From assembly GCA_005400705.1 (NCBI GenBank), contig GCA_005400705.1_4079.1: a DNA stretch of 64,000 bases; one strand, given 5' to 3'. A model generated the notes under the pieces. That model made no database searches. It was not told the DNA's origin and saw only the letters and a list, made by a program, of their open reading frames with translations. Positions 250-63,703 of the stretch are shown here, piece by piece (within the stretch, counting starts at the first letter, position 1; each line of letters begins with the position of its first letter). Both the position numbers and the translations under genes were made by a program. The DNA is from Escherichia coli (GTDB lineage: Bacteria; Pseudomonadota; Gammaproteobacteria; Enterobacterales; Enterobacteriaceae).

Positions 250-277
250 AAGTTTTTTGGAACAAAATCGTAAGTAG

Positions 278-286
278 TGATACAAT
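278..286 (+). promoter_or_regulatory. extended -10 promoter (TGaTACAAT)
   Basis: TG at 278-279, TACAAT at 281-286; upstream of small ORF and DNA polymerase. Confidence 0.4.
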
Positions 287-293
287 GTAGTCA

Positions 294-324
294 TCTCACC
301 GATTGTGGTGAGGTGACATTTTTT
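294..324 (+). terminator. hairpin plus T-tract immediately downstream of promoter -10 (terminator/attenuator)
   Basis: tctcacc-gattgt-ggtgagg stem-loop followed by TTTTTTT. Confidence 0.4.
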
Positions 325-350
325 TGAAAACACACATGGAGAAATACAAA

Positions 351-3700: not shown

Positions 3701-3738
3701 GTACTGCGTCAGTAAACAATGGATTCTTCACTTGGTAA
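733..3738 (+). CDS. DNA polymerase, family B (T4 gp43-like) with 3'-5' exonuclease domain
   Basis: FFDIETD (Exo I), YSKQDS (Exo II), DFNSLYP (motif A), KILLNSLYG (motif B), YGDTDS (motif C) in 1001-aa ORF. Confidence 0.95.
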   Translation: MYIDAYMERKRTGDILHVVERKNGKRILRELEPVYEYYVESPQGTHKTVYGTMAKHFEFQTQAQMNKSVEQHKSEGLRIFESDCNITFKTLAKEYMGKGSPDLNIVFFDIETDFHKKFGYAPPSDPFNRVTAISLYQSWTGKDYVLTLPPADMEIYEAQDIVRQLNEETNDPNSTVILYTDEKEMFMEFFSLIDDSDVISGWNSEFFDIPYMINRTKKIFNEATTARWCLWNKKPNSREADNFGKTVQTYDLVGRVHLDYLALYKKHAGQVEQSYKLDYIAEKVTKENKVSYEGSLDKLYREDYITFLRYSKQDSILLKKIDAKCDYINLHNRLAHKECVLISTTMGSVALIDTAIINLAHTRGEVVFNKAPKDDLEFDPEMEYYGEDGEDEDEKISAKAAGAWVQDPVLGLVSDLGCTDFNSLYPTVLRTLGMSTECILGQLRQDYTDAYLAAKIQEQKNKSKSKSFEPDWTAAWHGLFAAVEFTMVHEKSEETLIVDLEDGSSFKATGKELYDIIFAEDSTIVLSANGTLFDKSKSGVIPDILTQWYSERKAQQKMVIDYKHMYTDGWEFNGYEKVEPLLSNYTPGTMFRTNIHDNDPVYLLRKEIGKGQWDEVAKLIVENGLVLKDGRIFCPKEEKDYFKQRSAFWKQNQQIRKILLNSLYGALLNKGSRFFDKRLGQSVTLTGRSMTKHMASRINEITTGVYNHQGGSVIYGDTDSVYFSVTHYLKEQGIPYNLSKEEIVDMYIKIGEEVGESFPSFMHEMFNTGIEKGKIVGADLEMVGSRGLFLKKKRYAILKYWEDGFRKDIDGKPGEIKAMGLEIKRSDTPKYIQNFLEETLIALLVGESEQQLKQRVREFKDVFKDMPVHEKGSPKTVKNYTNLEAEYQLTGKCKVGHVLAGIQWNRLREVYDDKSVPEVTDGTKVIVCNLKDNPMGIKAVGYPIDCVEYLPEWFLELPFDTEKMEEIVLTKKLENIFGILDMDIGIHEKSTASVNNGFFTW

Positions 3739-4195: not shown

Positions 4196-4225
4196 TTGAG
4201 ACAAGCATCATTTTTGAGATATAAT
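4196..4225 (+). promoter_or_regulatory. sigma70-like promoter (TTGAGA-18-TATAAT)
   Basis: TTGAGA 4196-4201, TATAAT 4220-4225, upstream of clamp gene. Confidence 0.4.
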
Positions 4226-4289
4226 GGTGCTTGTAGTAATCTTACATAAAAACATTTTTTGATTAACAAATAAAACGGAGAATTATATA

Positions 4290-7803: not shown

Positions 7804-7814
7804 TGTGCTATAAT
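7804..7814 (+). promoter_or_regulatory. extended -10 promoter (TGcTATAAT)
   Basis: gtgctataat; followed by caatga-aaa-tcattg palindrome at 7819-7833. Confidence 0.45.
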
Positions 7815-7823
7815 TATCAATGA

Positions 7824-13081
<5,258 letters not shown>

Positions 13082-13109
13082 TTAAAAAATATGGGACAGT
13101 ATAAAAACC

Positions 13110-13120
13110 TGTGCTATAAT
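13110..13120 (+). promoter_or_regulatory. extended -10 promoter (TGcTATAAT) for SSB gene
   Basis: gtgctataat about 88 nt upstream of ATG 13208. Confidence 0.45.
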
Positions 13121-13207: not shown

Positions 13208-14260
13208 ATGAAATCTCTAGCTGAAATTCGTGCACACCTAAAAGCAGAACAAGAAAAAGCAGAAGCTCAAAAGAATGGTACATTTACTGGCGAGCGTAAA
13301 GCTGATTCGTTCTTAGCTTTCTGGAACGTACCTTATAACGAACCACTAAACCTACGTTTTCTACCAGATGCAGATGAGTCTAACCCATTCTTCTGGCGTG
13401 AACGTGACATGATTAACCTAACTTTCAATGGTGTAGTCGGTATGCACACTGATAAAGTTACCGTTCAAGTACCTTGTAACGAAATGTGGGTTCCTAAATC
13501 CTGTCCGGTTCTGAAAGAAGTACGTCAATGGTTCCAAAGTGCGAATGAAACAGGGAACGAAGAACTAAAAGCAATGGCTGGTCGTTACTGGAAGAAGAAA
13601 ACCTATCTAATGCAATGTTTTATTGCTCCTGATAGCGTTGCAGTAAAAGACGACATTGCACCAGAAAATCCAATTCGTCGTATTCTGGCTAACAAAGATA
13701 TCTTTGATAAAGTTAAATCCATCCTGCTAAACCCAGGCATCAAAGAGTCTCCAACTCACTACGTTCAAGGTCGTGATTTTGGTATTGTTAAAACTAAGAA
13801 TGGTGGTGGTTATAATAGCTACGACATGTCTCAATTCTCCATGTCTGAGCGTCCACTAAACGAAGAAGAACTAGCAGCAATTGAAAAATATGGCCTATAC
13901 AATCTAAATGATTTTATGCCAAAACAACCAACTCCAGAAGAGTTGAAAGCAATTGAAGAAATGTTCGAAGCATCAGTAAATGGTGAAGCATATGATCCAG
14001 CACGTTGGGCATTTGCATATCGTCCAGCAGGTGTACCAAAACCTAACTCTGGAACTGTTACTGAATCAAAACCAACTCCTGCTCCAGTACAACAAGAGTC
14101 AGCACCTGCACCAGTAGCACCTACTGCTCCAGTTACACCAGCCCAACAAGCTGCTCCAGTAACTCCAGTCGCTACCCCAGCAGCAACCACTCCTGAAGCA
14201 CCAAAAGAACAACTATCTGCATCTGCACTAGTTGCTCGTTTGAAACAACAAGGTAAGTAA
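13208..14260 (+). CDS. single-stranded DNA-binding protein (T4 gp32-like)
   Basis: His/Cys cluster (MHTDKV...VPCNEMWVPKSCP) consistent with gp32 Zn site; Pro/Ala-rich C-terminal tail. Confidence 0.75.
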   Translation: MKSLAEIRAHLKAEQEKAEAQKNGTFTGERKADSFLAFWNVPYNEPLNLRFLPDADESNPFFWRERDMINLTFNGVVGMHTDKVTVQVPCNEMWVPKSCPVLKEVRQWFQSANETGNEELKAMAGRYWKKKTYLMQCFIAPDSVAVKDDIAPENPIRRILANKDIFDKVKSILLNPGIKESPTHYVQGRDFGIVKTKNGGGYNSYDMSQFSMSERPLNEEELAAIEKYGLYNLNDFMPKQPTPEELKAIEEMFEASVNGEAYDPARWAFAYRPAGVPKPNSGTVTESKPTPAPVQQESAPAPVAPTAPVTPAQQAAPVTPVATPAATTPEAPKEQLSASALVARLKQQGK

Positions 14261-15956: not shown

Positions 15957-16775
15957 ATGACAAAATTAAATGAGTTTTTATCAAATGTAGCAGTTCTAGA
16001 TACTGAAACTACTGGGGTTGAGAGTGAAGATGATATTATTGAATTTAGTATCTCGTATCCACATACTTCACATGAAAACATTGATACTATTGATAACTAT
16101 ACATTGAGATACAAACCCTTGAAAGATATTCCACCAGAGGCATCTGCTGTGCACTTTATCAGTACTGAGGATGTAGCTAATTGTGTTGGGTATAAAGATG
16201 ATTTAGATAACATTGATGCACTTATGGGCTGCCGTAAGTATTTTGTTGGTCATAATGTACAATTTGACCGTAGAATGATGGTAGATAACGAATATAAATA
16301 TCGTAACTCAATTTCACAGTACTTACTTGATGAAAATAAATGGATTTGTACCCTTCGTCTTGCTAAGAAAATGTTCGCAGAAGATATTGAATTTAAAAAC
16401 TTAACTCTAAGTTATTTGTGGTATAAGTTTGGATGTTATCGTGATGTTCATCGACCTGTTAATGCACACGCAGCAAAAGACGATGTGTTTATGTGTTATC
16501 AGGTTCTAATCAAATTAGTTGAAATTGCAATCGAACGTGGATATATCGAACCTAATGGTGATATTGGTGAGCAAATTGTAACTTTCTGCAACACACCAAT
16601 GCGTTATCAATTCATGCCATTTGGTAAACACAAAGGTGAGCCAATGAGTACAGTTCCATTGAATTACATTGAATGGATGATTACTAATAGTGACATTTTA
16701 GATGCAAGTAACCCTAACTGTGATAAAGATTTAGTATATACATTTGAGTACGAATATAATACTCGAACTAATTAA
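15957..16775 (+). CDS. DEDDh 3'-5' exonuclease (DnaQ/ExoX-like) with C-terminal FGKHKG domain
   Basis: Exo I VLDTETTG, Exo II VGHNVQFD, Exo III HAAKDD; C-terminal FGKHKGEP...YIEWM. Confidence 0.7.
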   Translation: MTKLNEFLSNVAVLDTETTGVESEDDIIEFSISYPHTSHENIDTIDNYTLRYKPLKDIPPEASAVHFISTEDVANCVGYKDDLDNIDALMGCRKYFVGHNVQFDRRMMVDNEYKYRNSISQYLLDENKWICTLRLAKKMFAEDIEFKNLTLSYLWYKFGCYRDVHRPVNAHAAKDDVFMCYQVLIKLVEIAIERGYIEPNGDIGEQIVTFCNTPMRYQFMPFGKHKGEPMSTVPLNYIEWMITNSDILDASNPNCDKDLVYTFEYEYNTRTN

Positions 16776-16790
16776 TAAAGGTAATCATGG

Positions 16791-18275
16791 ATGAAAACTT
16801 GTAAGTTAACCTTATTGGATGAGGTGAATTGTAAATTTGAGGGACTTGATCCCTCAATTAGACAAAAGATGATTCGTGCAACTGAATATGTGTTACCATA
16901 TGCAAAGTTCACACCAGCAGGACGTATTGGACGTTGGGATGGTAAAGTTCAGTTTATGAATTTAGGCGGGACAACTTATTATCATATGTTAGATAAGTTA
17001 TTGCCTATTCTTGATGAAGCTAAGATTGACATTGAATTAGTAGATCATAGGGTAGATTATGGATTTAAATTTGACCCCATTGATGAAGATATTTTTAGTG
17101 ATGTTGTATTCGGTGCAGGACACCACATGGAAGGTAAATCCATAAAACTACGTGAACATCAAGTTAATGCGGTTAATGCATGTTTGGCTAATCCACACGG
17201 ACTACTATTGGCAGCTACTGGTGCAGGTAAAACTCTCATTACTGCTGCATTGTCAAAGAAAGTGCAAGAGTATGGACGTTCTGTTATAATAGTACCAAGT
17301 ACTGACTTAGTACAACAAACATATGATGACTACATTATGTGTGGGTTGGATACTGGCATGTTCTATGGTTCACAAAAAGATTTTGGTCACCAACATACTA
17401 TTACGACTTGGCAATCATTTAACTCTCTATGGAAGAAAACCAAGAAAGGTGAAATTGAATTAACTGAACAAGACGTGAATGATTTTATCGATGGAGTAGT
17501 TTGTGTTATCGTTGATGAGTGTCAAGGTGCAGGCGGTGACGCATTAGTTCAAGTACTTTCTAAAGTTATGAATAACGTACCATTACGTTGGGGTCTTACT
17601 GGAACAATTCCTAAAGATCCGGTAGTTGCCGCGAAAATCAAATGTAATGTTGGTGATGTTATATTTAAAATAACTGCAAAGGAATTACAAGATAAACAAA
17701 TACTAAGTACATGTAATGTGAATTGCATCAAACTAAAAAGTAGTATGAAGTTTGCATCATATGCTGAAGAGTTGAAATACTTAGTAACTGACAGAGATAG
17801 GATGGCATATGTAGCGTCATTGATATCTGCGTTATCTGAATCAGGAAACACTTTAGTTTTAGTAGATAGACTTGAAGCAGGTGAGTTGCTATGTGAATTT
17901 TTAGGCATTCCCAAATCAGAATTCGTTCGTGGAGAAACTAAAAAGAAAGATCGAGAATCATCTTATGGTGAAATTCGTTGGGCTGATAATAAAATACTTA
18001 TTGCGACATACGGCGTTGCCAGTACTGGTATTAGTATTTCAAGGTTATATAATGTAGTATTGATTGAGCCAGGAAAAAGTTTTGTAAGAACTATACAGTC
18101 AATTGGACGTGGATTACGCCGAGCAGAAGATAAAGACCACGTAGAAATATATGATATTAGTGGTTCTAATAAGTATAGTGCCAAGCATTTACGAGAACGT
18201 TTAGCTTACTATAAGGAAGCACAATATCCTCATAGTATAATAGATGTTAAAGATTGGGAAAACACAGCGGGATAA
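16791..18275 (+). CDS. SF2 helicase (UvsW-like)
   Basis: Walker A ATGAGKT, DExx box VDECQ, TGT motif, helicase C QSIGRGLR. Confidence 0.75.
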   Translation: MKTCKLTLLDEVNCKFEGLDPSIRQKMIRATEYVLPYAKFTPAGRIGRWDGKVQFMNLGGTTYYHMLDKLLPILDEAKIDIELVDHRVDYGFKFDPIDEDIFSDVVFGAGHHMEGKSIKLREHQVNAVNACLANPHGLLLAATGAGKTLITAALSKKVQEYGRSVIIVPSTDLVQQTYDDYIMCGLDTGMFYGSQKDFGHQHTITTWQSFNSLWKKTKKGEIELTEQDVNDFIDGVVCVIVDECQGAGGDALVQVLSKVMNNVPLRWGLTGTIPKDPVVAAKIKCNVGDVIFKITAKELQDKQILSTCNVNCIKLKSSMKFASYAEELKYLVTDRDRMAYVASLISALSESGNTLVLVDRLEAGELLCEFLGIPKSEFVRGETKKKDRESSYGEIRWADNKILIATYGVASTGISISRLYNVVLIEPGKSFVRTIQSIGRGLRRAEDKDHVEIYDISGSNKYSAKHLRERLAYYKEAQYPHSIIDVKDWENTAG

Positions 18276-18288
18276 ACCCGCTGTTTGT
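18264..18288 (+). terminator. terminator hairpin abutting next promoter
   Basis: acagcggg-ataaa-cccgctgt hairpin. Confidence 0.45.
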
Positions 18289-18296
18289 GATATAAT
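18288..18296 (+). promoter_or_regulatory. extended -10 promoter (TGaTATAAT)
   Basis: gtgatataat followed by perfect palindrome tgtcatatgaca. Confidence 0.45.
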
Positions 18297-18330
18297 GTGT
18301 CATATGACAACAACAAGGATGTAAAATAAA

Positions 18331-18759
18331 ATGGAATTGAGATCTAGTATTGCTTTTATTTGTGACCAAGAAACTTTAGAAGTTATGGATGTATTGTTGA
18401 ACGATGATGGTATTATGGATGACATGGTATCTTCTCTTGACTATATACCTGAGCTAGAAACGGATGATACTAACGTATGGAGATGTAATATTGATAGTGA
18501 TTCTTGGATTAATATCTATGAATTACAGACACGAATTGATTCTAAAGTAGAATCATTGAAATATGATATCATCTATGCAAGTACTGACACGAAAACTTTT
18601 ATTGATGTAGTAAGTCTAAGTGGTAATTTTGATTCATATCTGGATACTGATGTAGATAAAATTCAAGAGATGTGTGAAACTTATGGACTTGAATTTTATG
18701 GGGTAGAAGACCAAGATGATGAAGAATATTATGATGACGAAGAAGATTCGCAGTACTAA
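18331..18759 (+). CDS. hypothetical acidic protein
   Basis: 142 aa with highly acidic C-terminus (DQDDEEYYDDEEDSQY). Confidence 0.5.
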   Translation: MELRSSIAFICDQETLEVMDVLLNDDGIMDDMVSSLDYIPELETDDTNVWRCNIDSDSWINIYELQTRIDSKVESLKYDIIYASTDTKTFIDVVSLSGNFDSYLDTDVDKIQEMCETYGLEFYGVEDQDDEEYYDDEEDSQY

Positions 18760-18768
18760 GGAGATGAC

Positions 18769-19266
18769 ATGAACGTATTAACACCTGAAAATAATTCTTT
18801 TGACATGGATTTAGTAACAGAACATATCCCTGAAGAAATGTATTGTGTTTTGGATCTAAGCCCAAATGGTGAATCTGATTTTTATTTTAGACATATTCTA
18901 AACACCGTATCATTTAATAGTATTAGTGCTGATCTTCAAATTGGTGAAAAGATTATTCAAGTGCCTCTAGGATGGCAAATTATGTTAGGTGATGAAGAAA
19001 CTGGTATGGTTGAGATGTGTACAATTGAAAACATTCTTAACATGAAAGAACCAAAAGCTTTTGTTTACAATCCTATCCGTTCAATGTATCCTAAGTTTGA
19101 ACCAGTCAAAGTACTACGTGTATTTGCATTAACTACAAAGTGGCAGATACCAATGTTACCTAAAAAGAATTTACTATGCGTCCCACTACATAGTGGTGAA
19201 AATCCACCATGTGTGTACTTTGCAGATGAAAACGAAAAAATTCAAGATTTGTATCTAGGAGTATAA
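18769..19266 (+). CDS. hypothetical protein
   Basis: 165-aa ORF. Confidence 0.5.
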   Translation: MNVLTPENNSFDMDLVTEHIPEEMYCVLDLSPNGESDFYFRHILNTVSFNSISADLQIGEKIIQVPLGWQIMLGDEETGMVEMCTIENILNMKEPKAFVYNPIRSMYPKFEPVKVLRVFALTTKWQIPMLPKKNLLCVPLHSGENPPCVYFADENEKIQDLYLGV

Positions 19267-23179: not shown

Positions 23180-24235
23180 ATGAACGCTGTACAAAACATA
23201 ATGGCACAAATTATGAATGATCCAGTACCTGCGATTGGTACATGGTCACGACACAACTGTCCAGCTTGTGTGTTCAGAGGACATTCAAGGCCGGATACAA
23301 AGCACCGTGGTAATCATATGTTCAATGCAGATGGTTCCGTTTCATATAACTGCTTTAACTGTAGTTTAAAAACTGGTTGGCAACCAGGAAAATATATGAG
23401 CAAAGATATGGAGTCTTTGCTCATTTCTTTTGGTGCACAAGATAAAGAAATAGAATTAGTTAAGTTTTATATTAAAGAAATGGTTGACAGCGGTGATTTT
23501 GCTGCACAAGAAACTGTTGCATCAAAATTGTATGACCGAGTAACAGTACGTGATTTGCCATCAAATGCAAAAACATTTTGGGAATGGGCTTCTTTACCTG
23601 AAGATAAAATTCCACAAGAATTTATAAGTGTTTTGCATAATGTCAATGAAAGAAACCCATATCTGTTAGACTTAGAATTATATTGGTCACCTAATAAAGA
23701 ACATAAAATGTATGACAGATTTATTATTCCATATTTCATGAATGGTAAAATTATTGGTTATACTGCACGACATAAATTAAAAGATCCTGGAAGTACATAC
23801 AGGTTCATAAATCAAGTAAGTACTAATATACTATATAACTATGATTTATTAAAAGATGAACGAATAAAAACAATTTTAGTATGTGAGGGTCCGTTAGACG
23901 CAGCATTAATGGGTGGTGTATCTGCTAATAACTTTAAATTATCAAACGTACAGATTGATGTATTAAAAGATGCACAGCAAAAAGGTAAAAAAATAGTTAT
24001 TGTTCCAGATAGAGATAAAGATGGATTAATAACTATAGATCAAGCACTTGAAAATGGATTCAGTGTTTCCTTCCCAGACTTTGGTGCTGTAAGAGAAGGT
24101 AGTACAATACGTCATATCAAGGACTTTGAAGAAGCTTGTGCACGATTTGGTAGGTTATTTTGTTTACAATTAATACATGATAGTATAGTAGATGAGCCAT
24201 TTTATATTAAAGCTCAAACGGATAAATGGATGTAA
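23180..24235 (+). CDS. DNA primase (T4 gp61-like; zinc ribbon + Toprim)
   Basis: CPACVF...CFNCS zinc ribbon; VCEGPLDA and IVIVPDRDKDG Toprim motifs. Confidence 0.8.
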   Translation: MNAVQNIMAQIMNDPVPAIGTWSRHNCPACVFRGHSRPDTKHRGNHMFNADGSVSYNCFNCSLKTGWQPGKYMSKDMESLLISFGAQDKEIELVKFYIKEMVDSGDFAAQETVASKLYDRVTVRDLPSNAKTFWEWASLPEDKIPQEFISVLHNVNERNPYLLDLELYWSPNKEHKMYDRFIIPYFMNGKIIGYTARHKLKDPGSTYRFINQVSTNILYNYDLLKDERIKTILVCEGPLDAALMGGVSANNFKLSNVQIDVLKDAQQKGKKIVIVPDRDKDGLITIDQALENGFSVSFPDFGAVREGSTIRHIKDFEEACARFGRLFCLQLIHDSIVDEPFYIKAQTDKWM

Positions 24236-31486: not shown

Positions 31487-33805
31487 ATGATTAACGTAAC
31501 CAAGCGTAATGGAATGAAAGAGCCGTTATCATTGGATAAGATCCATCAAATTTTATTTTTCGCTGCTGAAGGGTTAAGTGGTATTTCCGTTTCTGAAATT
31601 GAAATCCGTGCACAGCTTCAGTTTTATGAAGGTATTGAAACCAGTACTATTCATGATATTCTAATAAAAGCAGCAGCAGAACTTATTTCTGAAGATACGC
31701 CTAACTATCAATACGTTGCTGGAAGATTATTAAACTATAGTATTCGTAAGCAAGTATATGGACAGTATGACCCAATTAAGTATACTGCTCATCTTCAAGA
31801 AATGGTAGATACTAAAATATATGATCCTGAAATTTTGGAGAAATATACTCTTCAAGAAATTGAAGAGCTTGGACGTTACATCAAACATAAACGTGATGAT
31901 AAATTCACTTATGTTGCTATGCGTCAGTGGGAAGGAAAGTATCTATATAAGAATCGCGTAACTAAGAAAATCTACGAAACTCCACAAATGGCATATATGA
32001 CCATTGCAGCAATCATCTTTATGGAGTATGATCGCTCTGTACGTATGTCTTATGTTAAGAAGTTTTATGATGCTGTTAGTAACTTTGATATCAGTCTCCC
32101 GACTCCTATCATGGCTGGTCTACGTACCAATACACGTCAGTTTAGTTCTTGTGTAGTACTAAACGTTGGAGATAGTCTAGATAGTATTGGTTCTTCTAAC
32201 CACGCTATACTACGTTATATTTCCCGTAAAGCTGGACTTGGTATCAATATGGGCCGCATTCGTGCTCTGGACTCCGAGATTCGTTCAGGTGATGCAGTAC
32301 ACACTGGTTTGATTCCTTTCATTGCATCAACTGCTAAGACCGTTAAAAGCTGCTCTCAAGGTGGTGTACGTGGTGGTGCAGCAACAGTCCACTTCCCATT
32401 GTGGCATTTGGAATTTGACAATCTTGTAGTACTGAAAAATAACAAAGGTACTGAGTTCAACCGTGTTCGACAACTTGACTATTGTTTCCAAGTGAACAAA
32501 ACACTATATCAACGTTTAGTGGATGGCAAGAATATTACATTCTTTAGTCCTAATGAAGTTCCTGGGCTATATGAAGCATTCTGTTCTAACCTAAAAGAAT
32601 TTGAAAAGCTGTACAAGAAGTATGAAGCTGATCCAAGCATTCGTAAAAAATCTGTATCTGCTGTTGAAGTATTCAGTACTCTAATGACTGAGCGTGCAGA
32701 AACTGGTCGTATCTATATTCAAAACATTGACCATGCAAACACACACTCAACCTTTATTGAATCAATTGCACCAATTGAACAATCCAACTTGTGTCAAGAA
32801 ATCGCACTACCATCTGTGCCATTTGATGATATTAATACTGGCGAAGGTTTGATTAGTCTATGTACTTTGAGTGCAATCAACTGGGGTAACTTTGACCGCC
32901 CAGAAGATATGGAAACTGCTTGTGATCTTTCTGTACGTGCTCTTGATTCTCTATTGGATTATCAAGACTACCCAGTAGTTCATGCTGACCGTGCAACTAA
33001 AATGTATCGCCCATTAGGTGTTGGTATCATTAACTTTGCATACTTCCTTGCTAAACGTGGTTTACGTTATAATGAAGCAGCATTAGAAACAGTTAACGAG
33101 TGGGCTGAAGCATGGTCTTACTATCTAATTAAATCTTCTGTACAGCTTGCTAAAGAGAAAGGTAAGTGTGAAGGTTTTGACACACTAAAATATGCTAAAG
33201 GTATTCTACCAATTGATACCTATAAAGAAGATATTGATGCGTTGGTATCTCCTGAACTAAAACAAGATTGGGAAACATTGCGTCAGGATATCAAACAATA
33301 TGGTATTCGTAACGCAACAACTATGGCACTGATGCCAGCAGAAACTAGTGCACAAATCAGTAACAGTACTAATGGTATTGAGAAACCTCGTTCACTTGTA
33401 ACTAAGAAACTATCTAAAGATGGTATTCTTAAACAAGTCGTTCCTGAAATCAATAAGTTGAAAAACAAATATGATTTACTATGGGATCAGAAAGATAACA
33501 TCGGTTATCTACAAATCTGTGGTGTTCTTCAGAAATACATTGACCAAAGTATTAGTGTGAATACCAGTTACAATCCAGCACACTTCCCTGATGGTAAGTT
33601 GCCAATGTCAACACTACTAACTGAACTAATGTATGCATACAAAGTTGGTTTGAAAAATCTGTATTATCATAATACTAATGATGGTTCTGATGAAGTGGAT
33701 GTTGAGAAAGTACTAAAAGAAGCTGCAAAACCAGAATCAGGACAGTTTGTGTTGCCTACACTACCTGACTTAGATGAAGGTGATTGTGATAGTTGTAAGA
33801 TCTAA
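31487..33805 (+). CDS. nrdA: ribonucleotide reductase class Ia large subunit
   Basis: N-terminal ATP-cone (VTKRNGMKEPLSLDKI), active-site CSQGGVRGG region, C-terminal CDSCKI. Confidence 0.9.
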   Translation: MINVTKRNGMKEPLSLDKIHQILFFAAEGLSGISVSEIEIRAQLQFYEGIETSTIHDILIKAAAELISEDTPNYQYVAGRLLNYSIRKQVYGQYDPIKYTAHLQEMVDTKIYDPEILEKYTLQEIEELGRYIKHKRDDKFTYVAMRQWEGKYLYKNRVTKKIYETPQMAYMTIAAIIFMEYDRSVRMSYVKKFYDAVSNFDISLPTPIMAGLRTNTRQFSSCVVLNVGDSLDSIGSSNHAILRYISRKAGLGINMGRIRALDSEIRSGDAVHTGLIPFIASTAKTVKSCSQGGVRGGAATVHFPLWHLEFDNLVVLKNNKGTEFNRVRQLDYCFQVNKTLYQRLVDGKNITFFSPNEVPGLYEAFCSNLKEFEKLYKKYEADPSIRKKSVSAVEVFSTLMTERAETGRIYIQNIDHANTHSTFIESIAPIEQSNLCQEIALPSVPFDDINTGEGLISLCTLSAINWGNFDRPEDMETACDLSVRALDSLLDYQDYPVVHADRATKMYRPLGVGIINFAYFLAKRGLRYNEAALETVNEWAEAWSYYLIKSSVQLAKEKGKCEGFDTLKYAKGILPIDTYKEDIDALVSPELKQDWETLRQDIKQYGIRNATTMALMPAETSAQISNSTNGIEKPRSLVTKKLSKDGILKQVVPEINKLKNKYDLLWDQKDNIGYLQICGVLQKYIDQSISVNTSYNPAHFPDGKLPMSTLLTELMYAYKVGLKNLYYHNTNDGSDEVDVEKVLKEAAKPESGQFVLPTLPDLDEGDCDSCKI

Positions 33806-33822
33806 TTAAAGATCCCGCTTCG

Positions 33823-33847
33823 GCGGGATTTATTTCATAGGAGTGAT
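33823..33847 (+). terminator. rho-independent terminator
   Basis: atcccgc-ttcg-gcgggat hairpin + T-rich tract. Confidence 0.55.
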
Positions 33848-33850
33848 ATA

Positions 33851-34624
33851 ATGAAAGTTGACTATCGTAGTCCAATAGATATTGGATTCATAGAAGAATT
33901 TTGGGATGATCTTGATATGGATATGATTGTTCGCTATCAAAAACTCCCACAAGACTTTATAAAAAAACATTTTGATAAAATGAACCCTAATATGTTAGTT
34001 CGATATCAAACAATGTCAACTGATTTTCTTAAAGAAAAGTGGGAGTGGTTTGATAAAAATGTTATTGCACAATATGTAGTCATGCCAATGGAATTGATTA
34101 TGGAAAAATGGAATGACTTCAAAGATAACTTTCTTGATACTGTTGCTAAGTATCAAAAACTAACACAAGATTTTATTCAAGACAAATGGAATGACTTTGT
34201 TGAATTTAGAGATGGTGTAATGTCGGAAATTTCCAGATATCAAAAACTAACACTTGATTTCATTAAAGATAAATGGGATTATATTGATAAGAACTATATT
34301 TCATATTACCAAACTTTAACGGTTGATTTTATCAAAGATAATATTACTGAATTAAATGTTGCAGCAGTATCAGCATTTCAAATACTATCGGATGATATAC
34401 GCTCATTGATGGGATTAGAAGCACCAGCAAAAACTATTACTGGTAATCAAATACTCGCGTTGGACCCATGTGCCGATGGTATGGCTCGATACAATGCTCA
34501 TACACCTGACAATAATAAAGTTTTGACATGGAATGAACTACTTACACTACACTTGGGTTCACAAGAAGGAATTAGTGATATCCATTGGCTATCATATAAA
34601 TTGGGTCATAAAATTAATACATAA
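33851..34624 (+). CDS. tandem-repeat protein (about seven 24-aa xRYQxLxxDFIKxKW units)
   Basis: Repeats IVRYQKLPQDFIKKHF / VRYQTMSTDFLKEKW / AKYQKLTQDFIQDKW / ISRYQKLTLDFIKDKW / YYQTLTVDFIKD. Confidence 0.55.
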   Translation: MKVDYRSPIDIGFIEEFWDDLDMDMIVRYQKLPQDFIKKHFDKMNPNMLVRYQTMSTDFLKEKWEWFDKNVIAQYVVMPMELIMEKWNDFKDNFLDTVAKYQKLTQDFIQDKWNDFVEFRDGVMSEISRYQKLTLDFIKDKWDYIDKNYISYYQTLTVDFIKDNITELNVAAVSAFQILSDDIRSLMGLEAPAKTITGNQILALDPCADGMARYNAHTPDNNKVLTWNELLTLHLGSQEGISDIHWLSYKLGHKINT

Positions 34625-34636
34625 AGGAATATATAT

Positions 34637-35761
34637 ATGTCAGTTTTCAAAATTAATGAGAAGTCTCACCTAGAAAAGAATATGTTTTTTGATGAAAGTG
34701 TTGATATCCAACGCTTTGAAAGTAACAAATACTCTACACTTGAAAAACTAACAGAACAACAGAAAAGTTTCTTCTGGACACCAGGTGAAGTTGACGTATC
34801 TAAAGATAAAATTGATTTTGCTAACCTCAATGATTCTGAGAAGCATATCTTTACATCAAACTTAAAACGTCAAATCCTTCTTGATTCAGTTCAAGGTCGT
34901 GGTCCTAACCTAATGCTACTACCATATGCATCTCTACCTGAACTTGAAAACTTTATTGAAACATGGGCGTTCTTTGAAGGTGCTATTCATAGTAAATCAT
35001 ATACACATATTATTCGTAACATTTATCCTAATCCATCTGAAGTTTTTGATACTATGTTGGACATTCCAGAAATCACTGATTGTGCTGCTGATGTTTCAAA
35101 ATACTATGATGACCTTGATGAACTCGGAACATTGTATCGTGCATTGGGTGAAGGCACTCATACTGTTAATGGTAAAACTATTGAAATTAATATGTATGAC
35201 CTAAAGAAAAAACTATGGTTATGTTTGAATAGTATTAACATTCTTGAAGGTGTTCGTTTCTATGCTAGTTTTGCTTGTTCATGGGCATTTGCAGAGAACA
35301 ACCTCATGGAAGGTAATGCAAAGATTATCCGTCTAATTTGTCGTGATGAAAACCTTCATCTAGCAGCAACACAAATGATTTTACGTCTTCTAAAGAAAGA
35401 AGATCCAGATATGGTAAAAATTGCCGAAGAGTGCTATGATGAAGTACTGGAAATGTTTATGTCTGCTATTCGACAAGAAGAAGCCTGGGCAGATTTCCTC
35501 TTTAAAGATGGTTCTATTATTGGATTGAACTCTGAAATTCTTAAACAGTATGTCCGCTGGATTGGTTCTAAGCGTATGACGGCACTTGGTATCAAATGTC
35601 CATATACTGTATCCAAGAGTAACCCACTACCGTGGACTGAACACTGGGTAAGTGGTAGTTCTGTACAGGTAGCACCACAAGAAACTGAAATCAGTTCTTA
35701 TATTATTGGTGGTATTGTGAATGATATCCAAGTAGATACATTCACACCATTCAAACTATAA
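34637..35761 (+). CDS. nrdB: ribonucleotide reductase small subunit
   Basis: Ferritin-like ExxH pairs (EGAIHSKSYTHII; RDENLHL); follows nrdA. Confidence 0.85.
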   Translation: MSVFKINEKSHLEKNMFFDESVDIQRFESNKYSTLEKLTEQQKSFFWTPGEVDVSKDKIDFANLNDSEKHIFTSNLKRQILLDSVQGRGPNLMLLPYASLPELENFIETWAFFEGAIHSKSYTHIIRNIYPNPSEVFDTMLDIPEITDCAADVSKYYDDLDELGTLYRALGEGTHTVNGKTIEINMYDLKKKLWLCLNSINILEGVRFYASFACSWAFAENNLMEGNAKIIRLICRDENLHLAATQMILRLLKKEDPDMVKIAEECYDEVLEMFMSAIRQEEAWADFLFKDGSIIGLNSEILKQYVRWIGSKRMTALGIKCPYTVSKSNPLPWTEHWVSGSSVQVAPQETEISSYIIGGIVNDIQVDTFTPFKL

Positions 35762-35773
35762 ATTCAAACTAAC

Positions 35774-35798
35774 AGGGATTCTATGAATCCCTTTTCTT
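35774..35798 (+). terminator. rho-independent terminator
   Basis: agggattc-tat-gaatccct + TTTTC. Confidence 0.55.
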
Positions 35799-35811
35799 AT
35801 GGGTATAATAT

Positions 35812-42282: not shown

Positions 42283-42477
42283 ATGACTGACAAAACATTT
42301 TATGATCGTATTATTGAAGACAAGGGAGTTTTTGATAAGGTAGTTTATGACCTAGAACTTATGATCAAAGACGCACCGAACCCCCGTGTGCGAACCCAAG
42401 CAGAATTTGCAAAAACTTATCTTGTTCAAGTTCAAGCAATCTGTGAAGCAATTAAAAAACACAATGATAGTGCTTGA
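42283..42477 (+). CDS. hypothetical small protein
   Basis: 64-aa ORF; stop lies within -35 of next promoter. Confidence 0.4.
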   Translation: MTDKTFYDRIIEDKGVFDKVVYDLELMIKDAPNPRVRTQAEFAKTYLVQVQAICEAIKKHNDSA

Positions 42478-42502
42478 CAGAACTAATGTTCTATCCTATA
42501 AT
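42474..42502 (+). promoter_or_regulatory. consensus sigma70-type promoter (TTGACA-17-TATAAT)
   Basis: TTGACA 42474-42479, 17-nt spacer, TATAAT 42497-42502; drives IF3/ClpS-like genes. Confidence 0.55.
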
Positions 42503-42546
42503 TACTATCGAACAAAACATTAAAATCATATTGGAGCTTTTATTAC

Positions 42547-46582: not shown

Positions 46583-46615
46583 ATATCGGGACAAATCGTT
46601 CCGATATTTTTTTTG
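46583..46615 (+). terminator. rho-independent terminator
   Basis: tatcgg...ccgata hairpin + TTTTTTTT. Confidence 0.5.
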
Positions 46616-46633
46616 AGACAAACAAAACATTGG

Positions 46634-46642
46634 TGATACAAT
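46634..46642 (+). promoter_or_regulatory. extended -10 promoter (TGaTACAAT)
   Basis: ggtgatacaat upstream of topoisomerase gene. Confidence 0.4.
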
Positions 46643-46676
46643 GTTTTATGACAAAGAGACATGATAAGGAATTCAA

Positions 46677-52586: not shown

Positions 52587-52898
52587 ATGTTTAATCCGTT
52601 TTTTGACCCGTCTGGAATGACGGAAAAAGAACTACAGTTAAAAATTAATGAACAGTCTATGCGTTTAACTTCTGCTCGTGCTGCTGGCCTAAGCGACATG
52701 ATTATTGGTAATATGCAAACTGTCTTAAATCAATGTTATGCTGAACTAGAACTTCGCCAAGGACAAAAAGAAAAAACTGTTTATGACGAAGAAGACCCAT
52801 GTATCTTCGATATGGATTCATATCTAACTGACAACGAAGAGGCCCAGAAGAAGAAAAATGAAAGTACAAGGAAACAGATTTATAAGTCCCAATGGTGA
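52587..52898 (+). CDS. hypothetical protein
   Basis: 103-aa ORF overlapping next ORF by 41 nt. Confidence 0.35.
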   Translation: MFNPFFDPSGMTEKELQLKINEQSMRLTSARAAGLSDMIIGNMQTVLNQCYAELELRQGQKEKTVYDEEDPCIFDMDSYLTDNEEAQKKKNESTRKQIYKSQW

Positions 52899-53376
52899 TG
52901 TGAAATGTAATCTTAACGCAGTTGTTTATGCAATCAATTGCGGTGCAGATATCCAGTACTTACAATTGCAGGAAATTGATGAACCTGAAAGGTTGAAATT
53001 CAATGATAACTGTAAAAAATTTGGCTTAGAACAACGTATGCTGGATTATACAATTGAGCATGATAAAAATCATGAACTGTGGCGATATGATCCAGTATAC
53101 GACAAAATAAATCTGCGTGACTTTTTCTTACAAAAATGCACATCCGATGAAGCACGAAAACGTGTTGAGTATGAACTTGATTTATATGAATATTATAATA
53201 TGACAAAGCTACTAAGATGTATGATATGGCTTGTTGATTATATGGAAGAAAATGAGATCTTTTGGGGTCTAGGTCGTGGAAGCTCTGTTGCATCATACTG
53301 TTTGTTTTTGATTGGACTACATATGGTAGATTCATTGAAGTACGAACTTGATGTTAACGAATTTTTGAAATGGTAG
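52858..53376 (+). CDS. DnaE (Pol III alpha) core-like fragment ending just before catalytic-Asp region
   Basis: RVEYELDLYEYYNMTKLLRCMIWLVDYMEENEIFWGLGRGSSVASYCLFLIGL colinear with DnaE ...GPGRGSxAGSLVAY... palm segment. Confidence 0.5.
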   Translation: MKVQGNRFISPNGDVKCNLNAVVYAINCGADIQYLQLQEIDEPERLKFNDNCKKFGLEQRMLDYTIEHDKNHELWRYDPVYDKINLRDFFLQKCTSDEARKRVEYELDLYEYYNMTKLLRCMIWLVDYMEENEIFWGLGRGSSVASYCLFLIGLHMVDSLKYELDVNEFLKW

Positions 53377-53385
53377 AAAAACATG

Positions 53386-53394
53386 TGATATAAT
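53386..53394 (+). promoter_or_regulatory. extended -10 promoter (TGaTATAAT) inside inverted repeat
   Basis: tgtgatataa ... ttatatcaca inverted repeat (53384-53418). Confidence 0.45.
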
Positions 53395-53439
53395 GTTTAT
53401 TGTAGGCTTATATCACACATACAATAAAAGGATTTTGAT

Positions 53440-57388: not shown

Positions 57389-58203
57389 GAATTTTAAATA
57401 TGCTTAAATCTCTTCACGAAACAACCAAATTACATCAGGATGAAAAGTATCGTCGCAGCCTTACTAAAGATTTAGCATGTCGTATGTATATGCGTAGATT
57501 TGAAATTTCAAGAATTGGTAAAGGCTGGGATGATGTAAATCGTGAAGACATTGATCCAGATGCAATTTTTAAAGCATACATGGCTAGAAAAGTTTTCATA
57601 AATGAAAAAACTTTTTATATTGATAGTGATAGAGAATTAGAAAATAAATTTACAAAAGGTTTATGGAAGATATGGTGTGTTGAAGTATTCGGTGAAGTAT
57701 TACCTGAGCCACCTGTTCCAGAAACTTATAAAGATTTAAAAAGTATTTTTGATAATGAACATATACATTCAAATTTCTCATTATATGATACTGTGTCAGA
57801 AGCTGTATTTTATGGTGAGTTACATGGTCATAACAAATACTTTGATAGTATGGTTAGTTTTGATTTGTTTTGTCACTTGCCTGGTGTATCAAGTTGGACA
57901 TGTGACCAACACAGAGCAAGTAAGATTGATAAGCGAAAATTCTCGGCCCAAAGATTTATGCAAGTTGCTATGAGTATGTATAAACTTGATTATCTTGGTT
58001 GTCCAGAACCATATAAACATTTTTGGAAAGAAAGAGCACAAAAATGTTTAAACTATTGTATAATCCGTTTAATGGACACATACATTCTTAAGTTTAGAAA
58101 TGCAACTGTATACGACATGCCTGAACCACCAAAGAATGAAAAATATCCACCTGTCAAGACATTTGTATGGTACAAGGATAAAAGTAACAAAAGGATGCAC
58201 TAA
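57385..58203 (+). CDS. hypothetical Cys/His-rich protein
   Basis: 272-aa ORF. Confidence 0.45.
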   Translation: MRILNMLKSLHETTKLHQDEKYRRSLTKDLACRMYMRRFEISRIGKGWDDVNREDIDPDAIFKAYMARKVFINEKTFYIDSDRELENKFTKGLWKIWCVEVFGEVLPEPPVPETYKDLKSIFDNEHIHSNFSLYDTVSEAVFYGELHGHNKYFDSMVSFDLFCHLPGVSSWTCDQHRASKIDKRKFSAQRFMQVAMSMYKLDYLGCPEPYKHFWKERAQKCLNYCIIRLMDTYILKFRNATVYDMPEPPKNEKYPPVKTFVWYKDKSNKRMH

Positions 58204-58218
58204 GGTGCGTCCTTTTTT
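58192..58218 (+). terminator. rho-independent terminator
   Basis: ggatgcac-taag-gtgcgtcc + TTTTTT. Confidence 0.5.
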
Positions 58219-58229
58219 CTTTTCAGGTG

Positions 58230-58258
58230 TTGACATGTGTAGTCGAAGTATGTACAAT
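58230..58258 (+). promoter_or_regulatory. sigma70-type promoter (TTGACA-17-TACAAT)
   Basis: TTGACA 58230-58235, TACAAT 58253-58258. Confidence 0.5.
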
Positions 58259-59436: not shown

Positions 59437-59465
59437 TTGACTATCATACGTGCTGCCCGTATAAT
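59437..59465 (+). promoter_or_regulatory. sigma70-type promoter (TTGACT-17-TATAAT)
   Basis: TTGACT 59437-59442, TATAAT 59460-59465. Confidence 0.5.
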
Positions 59466-59513
59466 GTTTATCACAGAGCAGCACATCATATTAAATTAAA
59501 CGAGGAATACTAA

Positions 59514-60650
59514 ATGTCCGAGAAAGAAATCAATCCTAAAAAAGCATCCACCGCAGCTAAATCAGCAAAACGCACTACTAAAACTGCGTCTAAAGGTCAT
59601 ACAATTGATGCAAGTGATATTTTTAACCAAACTACAAAATCACTACCAGTACTGAAAGATGTTAAGGGAAATACTATGTCTCTAACAGTTCAAAACATCA
59701 ATACTGTTGGTACAACTGCTGGTGCTGCTGTTGGGCGTTTGGCTGATGAAATTATGTCTAAAGTTAATGTAACGGATGACAATACCGAGTTTGGTAAATC
59801 AATCACCACAATTCTTACGTTGACTCGTGCAGTTGATATTGACAGTCTTCAAGAAGATAAATCAATTGTTGGTCGTATTAAGAAATTCTTTGTTAATGCT
59901 CAACAGAAAGTAGGTGATCAGTACAAAAACAGTAAAGAGCAAATTGACGAAATTATGAAAACTCTTCAAACTGGTATTAATCGCCAGCACGGAGAATGTG
60001 AATGGCTTGATAAAGCATATAATGAAAACAAAGAATATTTGTTTGAATTACGTGATACATTAGTTGGTTTAGAAGAAGTAACTAAAACACAAGATGCATT
60101 ATTATTAGAAATGCAAGCAGACAAAAATGTAGACTCTTTTGCTATTCAAGAGCAAAAGATGATTTGTGAAGCACTTTCTAAACAAGAAGATAAGATTCGT
60201 CGTCTTATCATGATGTGCGAGCTAAGTGGTCCACGTTTGATGAGTATGAAAAAAGTAAACTTGAACACTGTTTCTAAGTTTGAAGATTTAAAATCTGTTG
60301 TTATTCCAGCATGGAAGTCTCAATTGGCTGAACAGTTAATTTCCGAGCGTCAACGTAAGGATAATGAACTAGGCAATCTAATTGATAATGAGACAAACCG
60401 TCTTTTGGAAACTAACTCTAAAATGGTTGCAGCAAATATGTTGGACGCAGCAAAGGCAAACAACCGTGGTATTGTGGATATTAAAACCTTGCGTAATGTA
60501 CATAAAACGATGATTGACAGTATTGAAGCAGTTATTGAAGAAGAGAAAAAAGGTAAATTGGAACGTGAACGTGCTAAACAGGAAATTGCACAACTTTCCT
60601 ATGAACTGGAAGACACTCTTCGTGAAATTGCCGAAAAAGCTAACAAGTAA
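59514..60650 (+). CDS. hypothetical coiled-coil protein
   Basis: 378 aa, Lys-rich N-terminus, long helical heptad regions. Confidence 0.5.
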   Translation: MSEKEINPKKASTAAKSAKRTTKTASKGHTIDASDIFNQTTKSLPVLKDVKGNTMSLTVQNINTVGTTAGAAVGRLADEIMSKVNVTDDNTEFGKSITTILTLTRAVDIDSLQEDKSIVGRIKKFFVNAQQKVGDQYKNSKEQIDEIMKTLQTGINRQHGECEWLDKAYNENKEYLFELRDTLVGLEEVTKTQDALLLEMQADKNVDSFAIQEQKMICEALSKQEDKIRRLIMMCELSGPRLMSMKKVNLNTVSKFEDLKSVVIPAWKSQLAEQLISERQRKDNELGNLIDNETNRLLETNSKMVAANMLDAAKANNRGIVDIKTLRNVHKTMIDSIEAVIEEEKKGKLERERAKQEIAQLSYELEDTLREIAEKANK

Positions 60651-60653
60651 TAG

Positions 60654-60682
60654 TTGACATATGAGTGCGTTTTTAATATAAT
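60654..60682 (+). promoter_or_regulatory. sigma70-type promoter (TTGACA-17-TATAAT) embedded in hairpin
   Basis: TTGACA 60654-60659, TATAAT 60677-60682 in loop of hairpin 60664-60705. Confidence 0.5.
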
Positions 60683-60705
60683 CTTATTGAAAACGCACTC
60701 TTTTT
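60664..60705 (+). terminator. hairpin + T-tract enclosing promoter -10
   Basis: gagtgcgtttt ... aaaacgcactc arms, TTTTT after. Confidence 0.4.
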
Positions 60706-60729: not shown

Positions 60730-61419
60730 ATGAAACGTCGTCATATTAGTGTTGATATCGAAGCTCTTGGAACACCTGAACTTTCCGGTTATGATATTAT
60801 TATCCCAAATTACGCAGCAGTAGTAGTTCCAAGTAAACCTGAAAATGACATTCGTCAGTTCTTATATATTAAATTACCATACCAGGATCAAGTTGCTGCT
60901 GGTTTAAAATCAGACGCAGGTGCAATGGATTTTTGGATGAATACATGTCAGAAAGAATACCCTAATGCATATTCTGAAGTTGCCAGTACTATGAAACTCA
61001 AAGCACCTGAACTGTATGGACCGAATGGTCAATCACGACGATTTTTTGCATACAGTAGTATTGTTGATTTCTGGAAAGAATTACGTTACAATGATTATGG
61101 TGAAGAAGTTCCTCATTCAGTCTGGGGCAACGGATGTAACTTCGATTGTAGTATTTTACAAGCAAACCATTTAAAACTAATGAACGCTGGTGAGTTGTGG
61201 AAGTATGATGCACCTGAAAATGCACGCACATTGAAACGTTTATTGAATGAAGAAGCTCGTATTGAAATGGATGAAATCGTTTCGGTACAGTTGGATAAAT
61301 TTATCACATATGCAAATACGTGTGGGATTAATGGGTTGGAGTTACATCACCCACTGTTTGATGCAGCACGTGAAGCAATCCAGATTTCATTCTGTCTAAA
61401 CAAGCTTAAAATGGATTAA
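60730..61419 (+). CDS. DEDD-family 3'-5' exonuclease (DexA-like)
   Basis: ISVDIEALGT (DxE), WGNGCNFDCSIL, HHPLFDAAREA (H-x4-D). Confidence 0.6.
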   Translation: MKRRHISVDIEALGTPELSGYDIIIPNYAAVVVPSKPENDIRQFLYIKLPYQDQVAAGLKSDAGAMDFWMNTCQKEYPNAYSEVASTMKLKAPELYGPNGQSRRFFAYSSIVDFWKELRYNDYGEEVPHSVWGNGCNFDCSILQANHLKLMNAGELWKYDAPENARTLKRLLNEEARIEMDEIVSVQLDKFITYANTCGINGLELHHPLFDAAREAIQISFCLNKLKMD

Positions 61420-63115: not shown

Positions 63116-63703
63116 ATGTTTTTAAAAAATACTTATGAATTAATTAAAATGCTTCAAAATATGAATTCCGGTGGCTTGTTTCCCTATTACTCTGAGGATG
63201 AAACTCATCGTTTAGTCCTTAAATTGGATGAAACTGGACGTATTATATCACTAAGAACAACAGTCCCCAGTGTAGAACCAGTAATTACCAAATCAACTCA
63301 AAATTCAGGAACTGCTGTTAAAACACCACAAACATACAACTCTAATTACCAACAACCACAAATGTACACGATTAGCACTCCACCTATTAAACGAGTTGCT
63401 TGTATTGTGAATATAAAAGTATCTAAGGACTATCGCGACTTAATATCAGTTGAATGGTCAGAACTAACATCATCATTAGCAACAAATGGATTTGTAGTAA
63501 CAAATACAGGTCTAGCACAAAATGTGAAAGAAGGACAACAGATCATGAGTGCATTGTATCTTAGTAATGGTTGTGTTATCATCAATGGTAAGTTGTATAG
63601 CGATGCCGACCCCACTGCATTCACTGAAGATTTGATTGGTGATAAAGAATACAGCATTCTAGAAATTATGAATTTGAAAAAGGTATATGAAAAAGGTATA
63701 TGA
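63116..63703 (+). CDS. hypothetical protein
   Basis: about 195-aa ORF. Confidence 0.45.
   Translation: MFLKNTYELIKMLQNMNSGGLFPYYSEDETHRLVLKLDETGRIISLRTTVPSVEPVITKSTQNSGTAVKTPQTYNSNYQQPQMYTISTPPIKRVACIVNIKVSKDYRDLISVEWSELTSSLATNGFVVTNTGLAQNVKEGQQIMSALYLSNGCVIINGKLYSDADPTAFTEDLIGDKEYSILEIMNLKKVYEKGI

Follow-up and report, generated by a model that had tools for sequence, protein, structure and literature searches.

Predicted promoters interleaved with terminator-like hairpins between the replication genes of an Asteriusvirus jumbo coliphage

The stretch of DNA considered here (64,000 nucleotides from the Escherichia coli assembly GCA_005400705.1, hereafter the window) derives from an Asteriusvirus jumbo coliphage of the 121Q/PBECO4 group; indeed, it is 99.6-99.7% identical to the Escherichia phages IA-38, slurp01, PBECO4 and G17, Asteriusvirus jumbo myoviruses with genomes of about 350 kb. 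The G+C content of the window is 34%, its genes lie nearly all on the + strand and the gaps between them are short; according to annotated relatives, the window contains the replication module, comprising the DNA polymerase, the sliding clamp, the single-stranded DNA-binding protein (SSB), RecA/UvsX, UvsY, a helicase, a topoisomerase and the clamp loader (see Table 1). Several of the gaps contain a predicted promoter that overlaps or abuts a hairpin. Five such sites, referred to below by the positions 60654, 278, 13018, 18264 and 53384, had been listed in an initial annotation of the sequence and compared there with the promoter/stem-loop cassettes (PeSLs) of T4-type phages.

Orthologous regions were drawn from GenBank phage records, namely those of UE-S1 (94% identity), ph0011 (86%), TH47 and Turkey3 (81%), Turkey5 and JNE01 (75%) and A4 (74%), together with phages of other genera (the Klebsiella phages Muenster and RaK2 and the Erwinia phage Hallingskeid); an IMG/VR search with the TelA-like protein returned 121Q as the sole relative, and a search of the window against Rfam gave no match. 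Genome-wide counts refer to ECO103 4-12-1, a near-identical phage without annotation, of which 350 kb were concatenated. Start and stop positions of transcription are predictions from consensus spacing only, +1 being placed, as is usual, at the seventh base after the -10 hexamer. Two proteins of ph0011 are longer than their counterparts in the window, the helicase (16461-19040 in ph0011) having 860 aa versus 494 aa and the large terminase (9010-11355 in ph0011; 10057-11697 in the window) 781 aa versus 546 aa, which suggests inserted elements such as inteins; moreover, 13 nt of the window (63675-63687) do not align to ECO103, G17 or 121Q.

Two kinds of promoter are mixed among the five sites: the host sigma-70 consensus, represented in the window by the predicted promoters at 60654, 59437, 58230 and 42474, and a phage-specific kind, here called class B, which follows the formula GGGACAAA-N12-TGnTATAATG, that is, a box G(G/A)(G/A)ACAAA, then about 12 nt, then TG(A/C)TATAATG; expressed in the usual terms, class B combines a box ending in ACA at the -35 position, a 16-nt spacing and an extended -10. 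Class-B-type elements are used at all of the five sites but 60654. The features of sigma-70-type promoters are present, the hexamers being 16-18 nt apart, on the coding strand, upstream of a gene and conserved; across lineages that are 74-94% identical the hexamers are invariant and the spacers vary. The strand bias is pronounced: in the 350 kb of ECO103, all 20 class-B matches lie on the coding strand, where about 0.5 would be expected (0 on the opposite strand), and the window accounts for nine of them, which sit ahead of replication genes (278, 13018, 13093, 18264 and others); the perfect sigma-70 consensus is on the coding strand in 30 cases out of 30 (about 0.5 expected per strand), and matches to at least 11 of its 12 positions number 96 on the coding strand versus 11 on the other. 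The sigma-70 consensus sites cluster outside the window, in regions of ORFs of about 90 aa. A loose scan (at least 9 of 12 matches) gave no enrichment over shuffles; only strict matches and strand bias are informative. In the window, class B was the sole dispersed repeat between genes that an unbiased repeat finder detected, in the form of four families (D3, D4, D7 and D16) of 34-43 nt and 67-76% identity; since these repeats stop at the -10, the hairpins lie outside the repeated unit. A TTTGTC consensus in the start region of class-B promoters, considered as a candidate cause of the repeats at 4196 and 13018, was not found, and TGATATAATG at 33844 was rejected as a promoter, because it separates the ribosome-binding site from the start codon in a gene that is missing in both ECO103 and TH47.

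Table 1. Genes, predicted promoters and hairpins of the window, with their positions.
Feature	Position	Strand	Remarks
Predicted class-B promoter	259-286	+	GGAACAAAA-N-TGATACAAT; GGAACA 259-264, 16-nt spacer, TG-A-TACAAT 278-286; followed by a 100-aa gene and that of the DNA polymerase
Terminator-like hairpin + T7	290-325	+	stem-loop 290-317, 11-12 pairs, 3 nt past the -10
DNA polymerase gene	733-3738
Predicted (TT)GAGACA...TATAAT unit	4196-4234	+	arms ACAAGCATCA 4201-4210 / TGGTGCTTGT 4225-4234 around the -10; sliding-clamp gene downstream
Predicted class-B promoter	13018-13045	+	GGGACAAACA-N-TGATATAAT; first of two before the SSB gene
Conserved hairpin	13048-13080	+	TGTTTGTCGAGG/CCTTGACAAACA; no T-tract; -22.3 kcal/mol, z = -5.7
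Predicted class-B promoter	13093-13120	+	GGGACAGTA-N-TGCTATAAT; second before the SSB gene
SSB gene	13208-14260
Helicase gene	16791-18275
Hairpin at end of helicase gene	18264-18284	+	ACAGCGGG-ATAAA-CCCGCTGT; stop codon 18273-18275 in loop
Extended -10, class-B-type	18288-18296	+	TGATATAAT; invariant in all relatives; repeat family D3
Palindrome, 12 nt	18298-18309		TGTCATATGACA
Predicted TTGACA-17-TATAAT unit	42466-42509	+	promoter 42474-42502 within arms GATAGTG/ACTATC; z = -3.9
Predicted terminator, then class-B promoter	46583-46647	+	terminator 46583-46607 + T8, then GAGACAAAC-N-TGATACAAT; kept in TH47
Predicted promoter TTGAAA-18-TATAAT	53365-53394	+	extended -10 TGTGATATAAT
10-bp inverted repeat	53384-53417	+	TGTGATATAA/TTATATCACA; 5' arm = extended -10; no T-tract; z = -2.4
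Predicted terminator, then TTGACA-17-TACAAT	58189-58258	+	ordinary tandem; terminator 58189-58216, promoter 58230-58258
Predicted TTGACT-17-TATAAT, -10 in hairpin loop	59437-59484	+	arms GTGCTGC 59450-59456 / GCAGCAC 59478-59484; no T-tract; z = -2.7
TelA-like gene	59514-60650
Predicted sigma-70 consensus promoter	60654-60682	+	12/12 match; -35 TTGACA 60654-60659, 17-nt spacer, -10 TATAAT 60677-60682; upstream of the exoribonuclease-like gene
Predicted terminator hairpin of TelA-like gene	60663-60705	+	stem-loop 60663-60700, then T5
3'-5' exoribonuclease-like gene	60730-61419		protein matches Pfam PF16473
Class-B -10 elements	281, 13040, 13115, 18291, 23145, 29534, 36008, 39923, 46637		variants at 7809 and 53389

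At 60654, a consensus promoter with its -10 inside a hairpin followed by a T-tract had been reported in the initial annotation, and this is what the sequence contains. The hairpin, already annotated as a terminator in the G17 record, has 16 pairs, a loop of 6 nt and a TTTTT tail; it holds the -10 in its upper stem and loop and folds with -22.1 kcal/mol (z = -7.9). Both hexamers are invariant in six Asteriusvirus lineages, the spacer varying between 17 and 18 nt, and the stem changes around them: in Turkey5 GAGTGCG/CGCACTC becomes AGGTGCG/CGCACCT, with pairing preserved, in TH47 one base is lost from both arms, and in A4 the stem is unrelated, ATGTGCCCA/TGGGCACAT, yet the -10 remains enclosed in it and a T-rich tail comes next. 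In the other genera the locus carries a plain terminator without a promoter. The predicted start, 60689, falls within the 3' arm of the hairpin; RNA beginning there is predicted to form no hairpin (-2.6 kcal/mol), and RNA reading through from upstream to form one of -22.7 kcal/mol, flush against U5.

The promoter motif at 278 is kept in ECO103 (as GAGACAACA), Turkey5 and A4 despite divergent flanks, and the hairpin that follows it (z = -2.6) exists in three unrelated types, all starting 2-3 nt after the -10 and ending in a T-tract: one shared by the window and ECO103, of which TH47 has a compensated version, a second in Turkey5 (AGACAACC/GGTTGTCT) and a third in A4 (AGACATTCCAC/GTGGAGTGTCT). 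Here transcription is predicted to begin on the fourth base of the 5' arm (293), and RNA begun at this position keeps 8 pairs, ending 4 nt short of the U-tract; with such a hairpin left near the U-tract, some self-attenuation is possible. Among the five sites, a stem-loop, a U-tract and a location downstream of a stop codon are found together only at 60663-60705 and 290-325, and the T-tracts of both are conserved in relatives.

The initial annotation regarded 278, 13018, 18264 and 53384 as recurrences of the arrangement seen at 60654; all four exist, though as a heterogeneous set in which a T7 tract is found only at 278. With two promoter classes and a hairpin placed differently at each of the five sites, a convincing T-tract is present at two of the five. 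At 13018 the promoter is GGGACA-16-TATAAT with a TG, and the -10 lies between the arms of an 8-bp repeat, GACAAACA/TGTTTGTC (-7.5 kcal/mol, z = -2.5, T-tract absent); however, the hairpin 13018-13059 was set aside because that at 13048-13080 overlaps and competes with it, folds more strongly and covaries, with compensatory changes in Turkey5 and A4. The 5' arm of the latter is also what the -35 box pairs with in the repeat 13020-13057. The hairpin at 18264 (site z = -4.5) also contains GGGATA, the -35-like box of the next promoter; its stem is invariant in five lineages, its 5' arm being coding sequence. As to the neighbouring palindrome 18298-18309, it is broken in TH47 and ph0011 and absent from Turkey5 and A4; it was rejected as an operator or conserved element and is probably incidental. 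At 53384 the -10 is invariant in relatives, Muenster having GAACAAAA-N-TGATATAAT at this place, and the inverted repeat shrinks with phylogenetic distance (10, 10, 10, 9, 7 and 5 bp), being absent in Muenster. In UE-S1, ph0011 and TH47 its 3' arm (53408-53417) is a perfect TGATATAAT on the minus strand, possibly an antisense promoter that would face the gene 52858-53376.

Comparable units, absent from the initial listing, occur at 4196, 42466, 46613-46647 and 59437. The hairpin at 59437, whose promoter matches 11 of the 12 consensus positions, has 98% of its cells paired among relatives, versus 8-61% in slid registers, and displays a single double change, from CG to UA; a shifted form of it is retained in Muenster and RaK2, and the hairpin embedded at this place in Hallingskeid is a different one. 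At 4196 (-14.8 kcal/mol, z = -4.1, T-tract absent) five lineages share conserved arms and differ in the loop, a U.G to C-G change keeping the pairing, and at 46613-46647 the class-B -10 serves as 3' arm in a 9-bp hairpin (z = -2.6). In the tandem at 58189, where the promoter is an 11/12 match, the terminator and the hexamers are conserved but a predicted hairpin between -35 and -10 is not. Altogether, fold z-scores of the sites range from -2.4 to -7.9.

The generality of the association was assessed by folding a 71-nt window around each of 70 promoters against dinucleotide shuffles. The mean z is -1.06 for consensus and -1.38 for class-B promoters, versus -0.30 to -0.35 for coding controls, which include windows centred on TATAAT; values below -2 are reached by 26-40% of the promoter windows versus 7-10% of the controls (p = 0.02 and 2e-4). 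In the genome-wide motif and fold scan, put forward in the initial annotation as a check, promoter windows are more structured than controls, and perfect consensus and class-B sites are found on the coding strand only. The association of promoters with hairpins is therefore real, and limited to about a third of the promoters, about two thirds genome-wide being without a strong overlapping hairpin. Persistence of the hairpins in relatives, on which the same annotation had made its proposal depend, was found for 60654, 278 and 59437. Covariation statistics are weak (32 of 500 and 56 of 500 shuffles reach the observed score), as only 6-7 sequences are available; replacement of a whole stem with its geometry retained is stronger evidence than covariation, and the compensation and the A4 stem swap at 60654, together with the three stems at 278, point to an architecture under selection.

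With their G+C-containing stems of 11-16 pairs, directly followed by T5-T7 and placed just past a stop codon, 60654 and 278 resemble intrinsic terminators, from which the units of the window differ in having a promoter built into or against the hairpin and, in part, in the U-tract, which is absent at 13018, 53384, 59437 and 4196 and weak and not conserved at 18264. We consider it likely that the units are composite terminator/promoter junctions, in which the hairpin of the upstream transcript is interleaved with the promoter of the next gene and transcription starts inside the hairpin. The RNA hairpin would end or cap the upstream transcript: incoming polymerases would transcribe the whole hairpin and the U-tract and then terminate, and RNAs begun at the embedded promoter would miss the whole stem or its base and read on. 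A start inside the hairpin would thus make upstream transcripts stop and let the promoter's own transcripts escape, which is the simple prediction offered by this geometry. The fold data are consistent with units that spare their own transcripts, as does the placement of the T-tracts, which genome-wide are carried by none of the 14 hairpins lying wholly after the predicted start versus 5-6 of the 17 overlapping the promoter. Hairpins without a U-tract (59437, 4196, 13048-13080, 53384 and, its tract being weak, 18264) would more likely be attenuators, 3'-end protectors or 5'-leader structures.

PeSLs, known from the T4-like phages RB49/phi1, PST/T4 and nt-1/KVP40 (PMC2839356; PMC4122927), consist of a repeated composite of about 100 bp, in which an early promoter of the sigma-70 consensus type, preceded by an AT-rich region, is combined with a stem-loop that can take any of five positions, and both promoter and terminator activity have been demonstrated for them (PMC2839356); they concentrate in plastic regions, flank ORFans and mediate indels (PMC2839356; PMC4122927). 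The formation of mini-circles is another PeSL trait. The units of the window are like PeSLs in several respects, namely the intergenic combination of a predicted sigma-70-type promoter with a stem-loop predicted to stop upstream transcription, the location of the stem-loop between -35 and -10, over either box or just past the -10, the Shine-Dalgarno sequence and start codon that come next and, at 278, one recombination junction inside the unit; composites of this kind are found at the five sites and at 4196, 59437 and 46613. As to the promoter, the strong sigma-70 consensus of PeSLs is present at 60654, 59437 and 58230, while 278, 13018, 18264 and 53384 combine a non-consensus -35 box with an extended -10. 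The repeat search of the window found no repeated motif of about 100 bp, only the 34-43-nt families; the five sites were rejected as copies of one cassette, since only a promoter part of about 35-43 nt recurs, with about 70% identity, and the hairpins are unique. The units are inherited as orthologous elements and are not located in a plastic region rich in ORFans: their neighbours are conserved genes of the replication module (those for the DNA polymerase, clamp, SSB, helicase, TelA-like protein and exoribonuclease), in a gene order maintained in ph0011, Turkey5 and A4. Some small genes adjacent to the sites have no Pfam match. The PeSL reading of the initial annotation thus holds as far as composite promoter/stem-loop units with a variable stem position are concerned, and fails as regards repetition, plastic context and, mostly, promoter class; it is partly supported, the units probably working like T4-type PeSLs without being members of the PeSL family.

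The extent to which the units serve recombination bears on a rival explanation, according to which they are mobile cassettes of the PeSL type, whose repeated promoter and stem-loop sequences act as sites of homologous recombination and shuffle the flanked genes between phages. Such a breakpoint is indeed present at 278: the window is 100% identical to TH47 from position 1 to about 296 and about 85% identical beyond, and its identity to ECO103 is about 60% before 277 and rises to 100% from about 290, which places the crossover in GTCATCT (290-296), at the foot of the hairpin, and hints that the units also mark exchange points between jumbo-phage lineages. A second mosaic patch (about 31883-35790) shares 98-100% identity with TH47 (otherwise about 85%) and about 90% with ECO103 (otherwise about 99-100%); its right junction (35784-35803) is in the terminator 35774-35792 and its left end within a gene. 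Further examples come from outside the window, where several other replacements begin just past a promoter -10. In ECO103 (reverse complement 332654-332976) two promoters sharing TATAATGTTTATATCAAA enclose a small-ORF cassette of 322 bp where TH47 has one chimeric promoter, a clear case of a deletion or insertion of the PeSL type. The early region (ECO103 reverse complement 28-48 kb and 316-348 kb) contains 14 near-identical TTGACA-N10-AGTACTGTATAAT promoter cassettes; in eight of these the -10 is followed, after about 13 nt, by a GGGGAGAA..TTCTCCCC hairpin that lacks a T-tract. The cassettes are the closest to true PeSL repeats in this phage. Within the window, however, only the promoter consensus recurs, the hairpins being unique to their sites between conserved genes, and the two indels adjoin single terminators and do not lie between two units. 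One is the gene 33838-34615 (257 aa), directly after the terminator 33812-33829 and missing from ECO103 and TH47; the other is an insertion of about 760 bp in TH47 at window position of about 15910, between uvsY and an exonuclease gene. The 257-aa protein has tandem repeats of about 23 aa ('RYQKLxxDFI') and no Pfam match; the TH47 insertion (reverse complement 23400-24163) encodes a 250-aa ORF with its own upstream terminator, which looks like a free-standing endonuclease. The differences between G17 and ECO103 just past the window, tried as unit events, proved to be an in-gene tandem duplication and a divergent allele, not located at units; moreover, intergenic junctions are to be expected in any case, recombinants with a breakpoint inside a gene being lost. 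The notion that the sites are boundaries of shuffled modules agrees with the breakpoint at 278 but not with the indels, neither of which is flanked by two units; PeSL-like shuffling probably exists in the Asteriusvirus group, with the window sites as poor examples of it, and mobile cassettes are unlikely as an account of them.

Still less probable is the view that the overlaps are incidental, independent signals having been squeezed into gaps of 50-100 nt with no function in their relative position. The shortness of the gaps, the variation of hairpin position from site to site, the ordinary terminator-then-promoter tandems at 46583 and 58189, the incidental look of the 18298 palindrome and of the 13018 repeat, and the lack of a strong overlapping hairpin at most promoters all agree with it; what it leaves unexplained is that the geometry is kept through replacement of the stem by unrelated sequence at 278 and 60654, that T-tract hairpins never lie wholly after the predicted start, and that promoter windows exceed sequence-matched controls in structure. 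The inverted repeats could also be DNA operators for dimeric regulators of the embedded promoters, as mentioned in the initial annotation, and the three copies of GACAAACA in alternating orientation at 13020-13078, the inverted copy of the extended -10 at 53384 (perfect in three relatives, as described above) and the invariant arms at 4196 would suit such a function; but the repeat sequence is different at every site, stems change with pairing kept or are wholly replaced between relatives, several of them need G.U pairs, which are possible in RNA only, the strongest are followed by T-tracts, and the one perfect palindrome is lost in ph0011, Turkey5 and A4, which makes operators very improbable. 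It is known from single-molecule work that the E. coli polymerase can slide after termination and re-initiate. The overlap could accordingly be imagined as a regulatory device, in which polymerase is handed from the terminator to a promoter less than about 20 bp away, or in which the hairpin or a cruciform gates the opening of the -10; firing of the downstream promoter would then be linked to the activity of the gene before it or to the topology of the DNA, and to this we assign the lowest probability of all. Composite terminator/promoter junctions remain the reading that we prefer.

These data provide a first working map, with two or three promoter classes and terminators, of the transcription signals in a group of 350-kb phages, and indicate that a promoter-in-terminator unit can be maintained among core replication genes as a conserved, orthologous element, its stem turning over while the geometry is fixed; as the design principle is known already from T4-like phages, the advance is incremental. 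In the Asteriusvirus literature searched, no promoters, and no class-B-like promoter set, are described. By analogy, the middle promoters of T4 have a comparable organisation, with an upstream MotA box unlike the class-B box. Class B is probably read by the host polymerase via the extended -10, with a phage sigma factor or activator; a sigma factor is encoded by Asteriusviruses (PMC7247149). In the related phage CBB, a phage sigma factor, RpoD-like promoters and, ahead of DNA-synthesis genes, 'divergent RpoD-like' promoters have been described (PMC5259590), and the divergent promoters of the Rak2-like phages CBB and GAP32 share with class B a canonical -10, an alternative upstream box, the location ahead of replication genes and a phage-encoded sigma factor (PMC5259590). 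The organisation is thus alike and the motif different, the upstream consensus being TGAAACG in CBB (PMC5259590) versus G(G/A)(G/A)ACAAA with a TGn extended -10 in the class-B promoters of the window.
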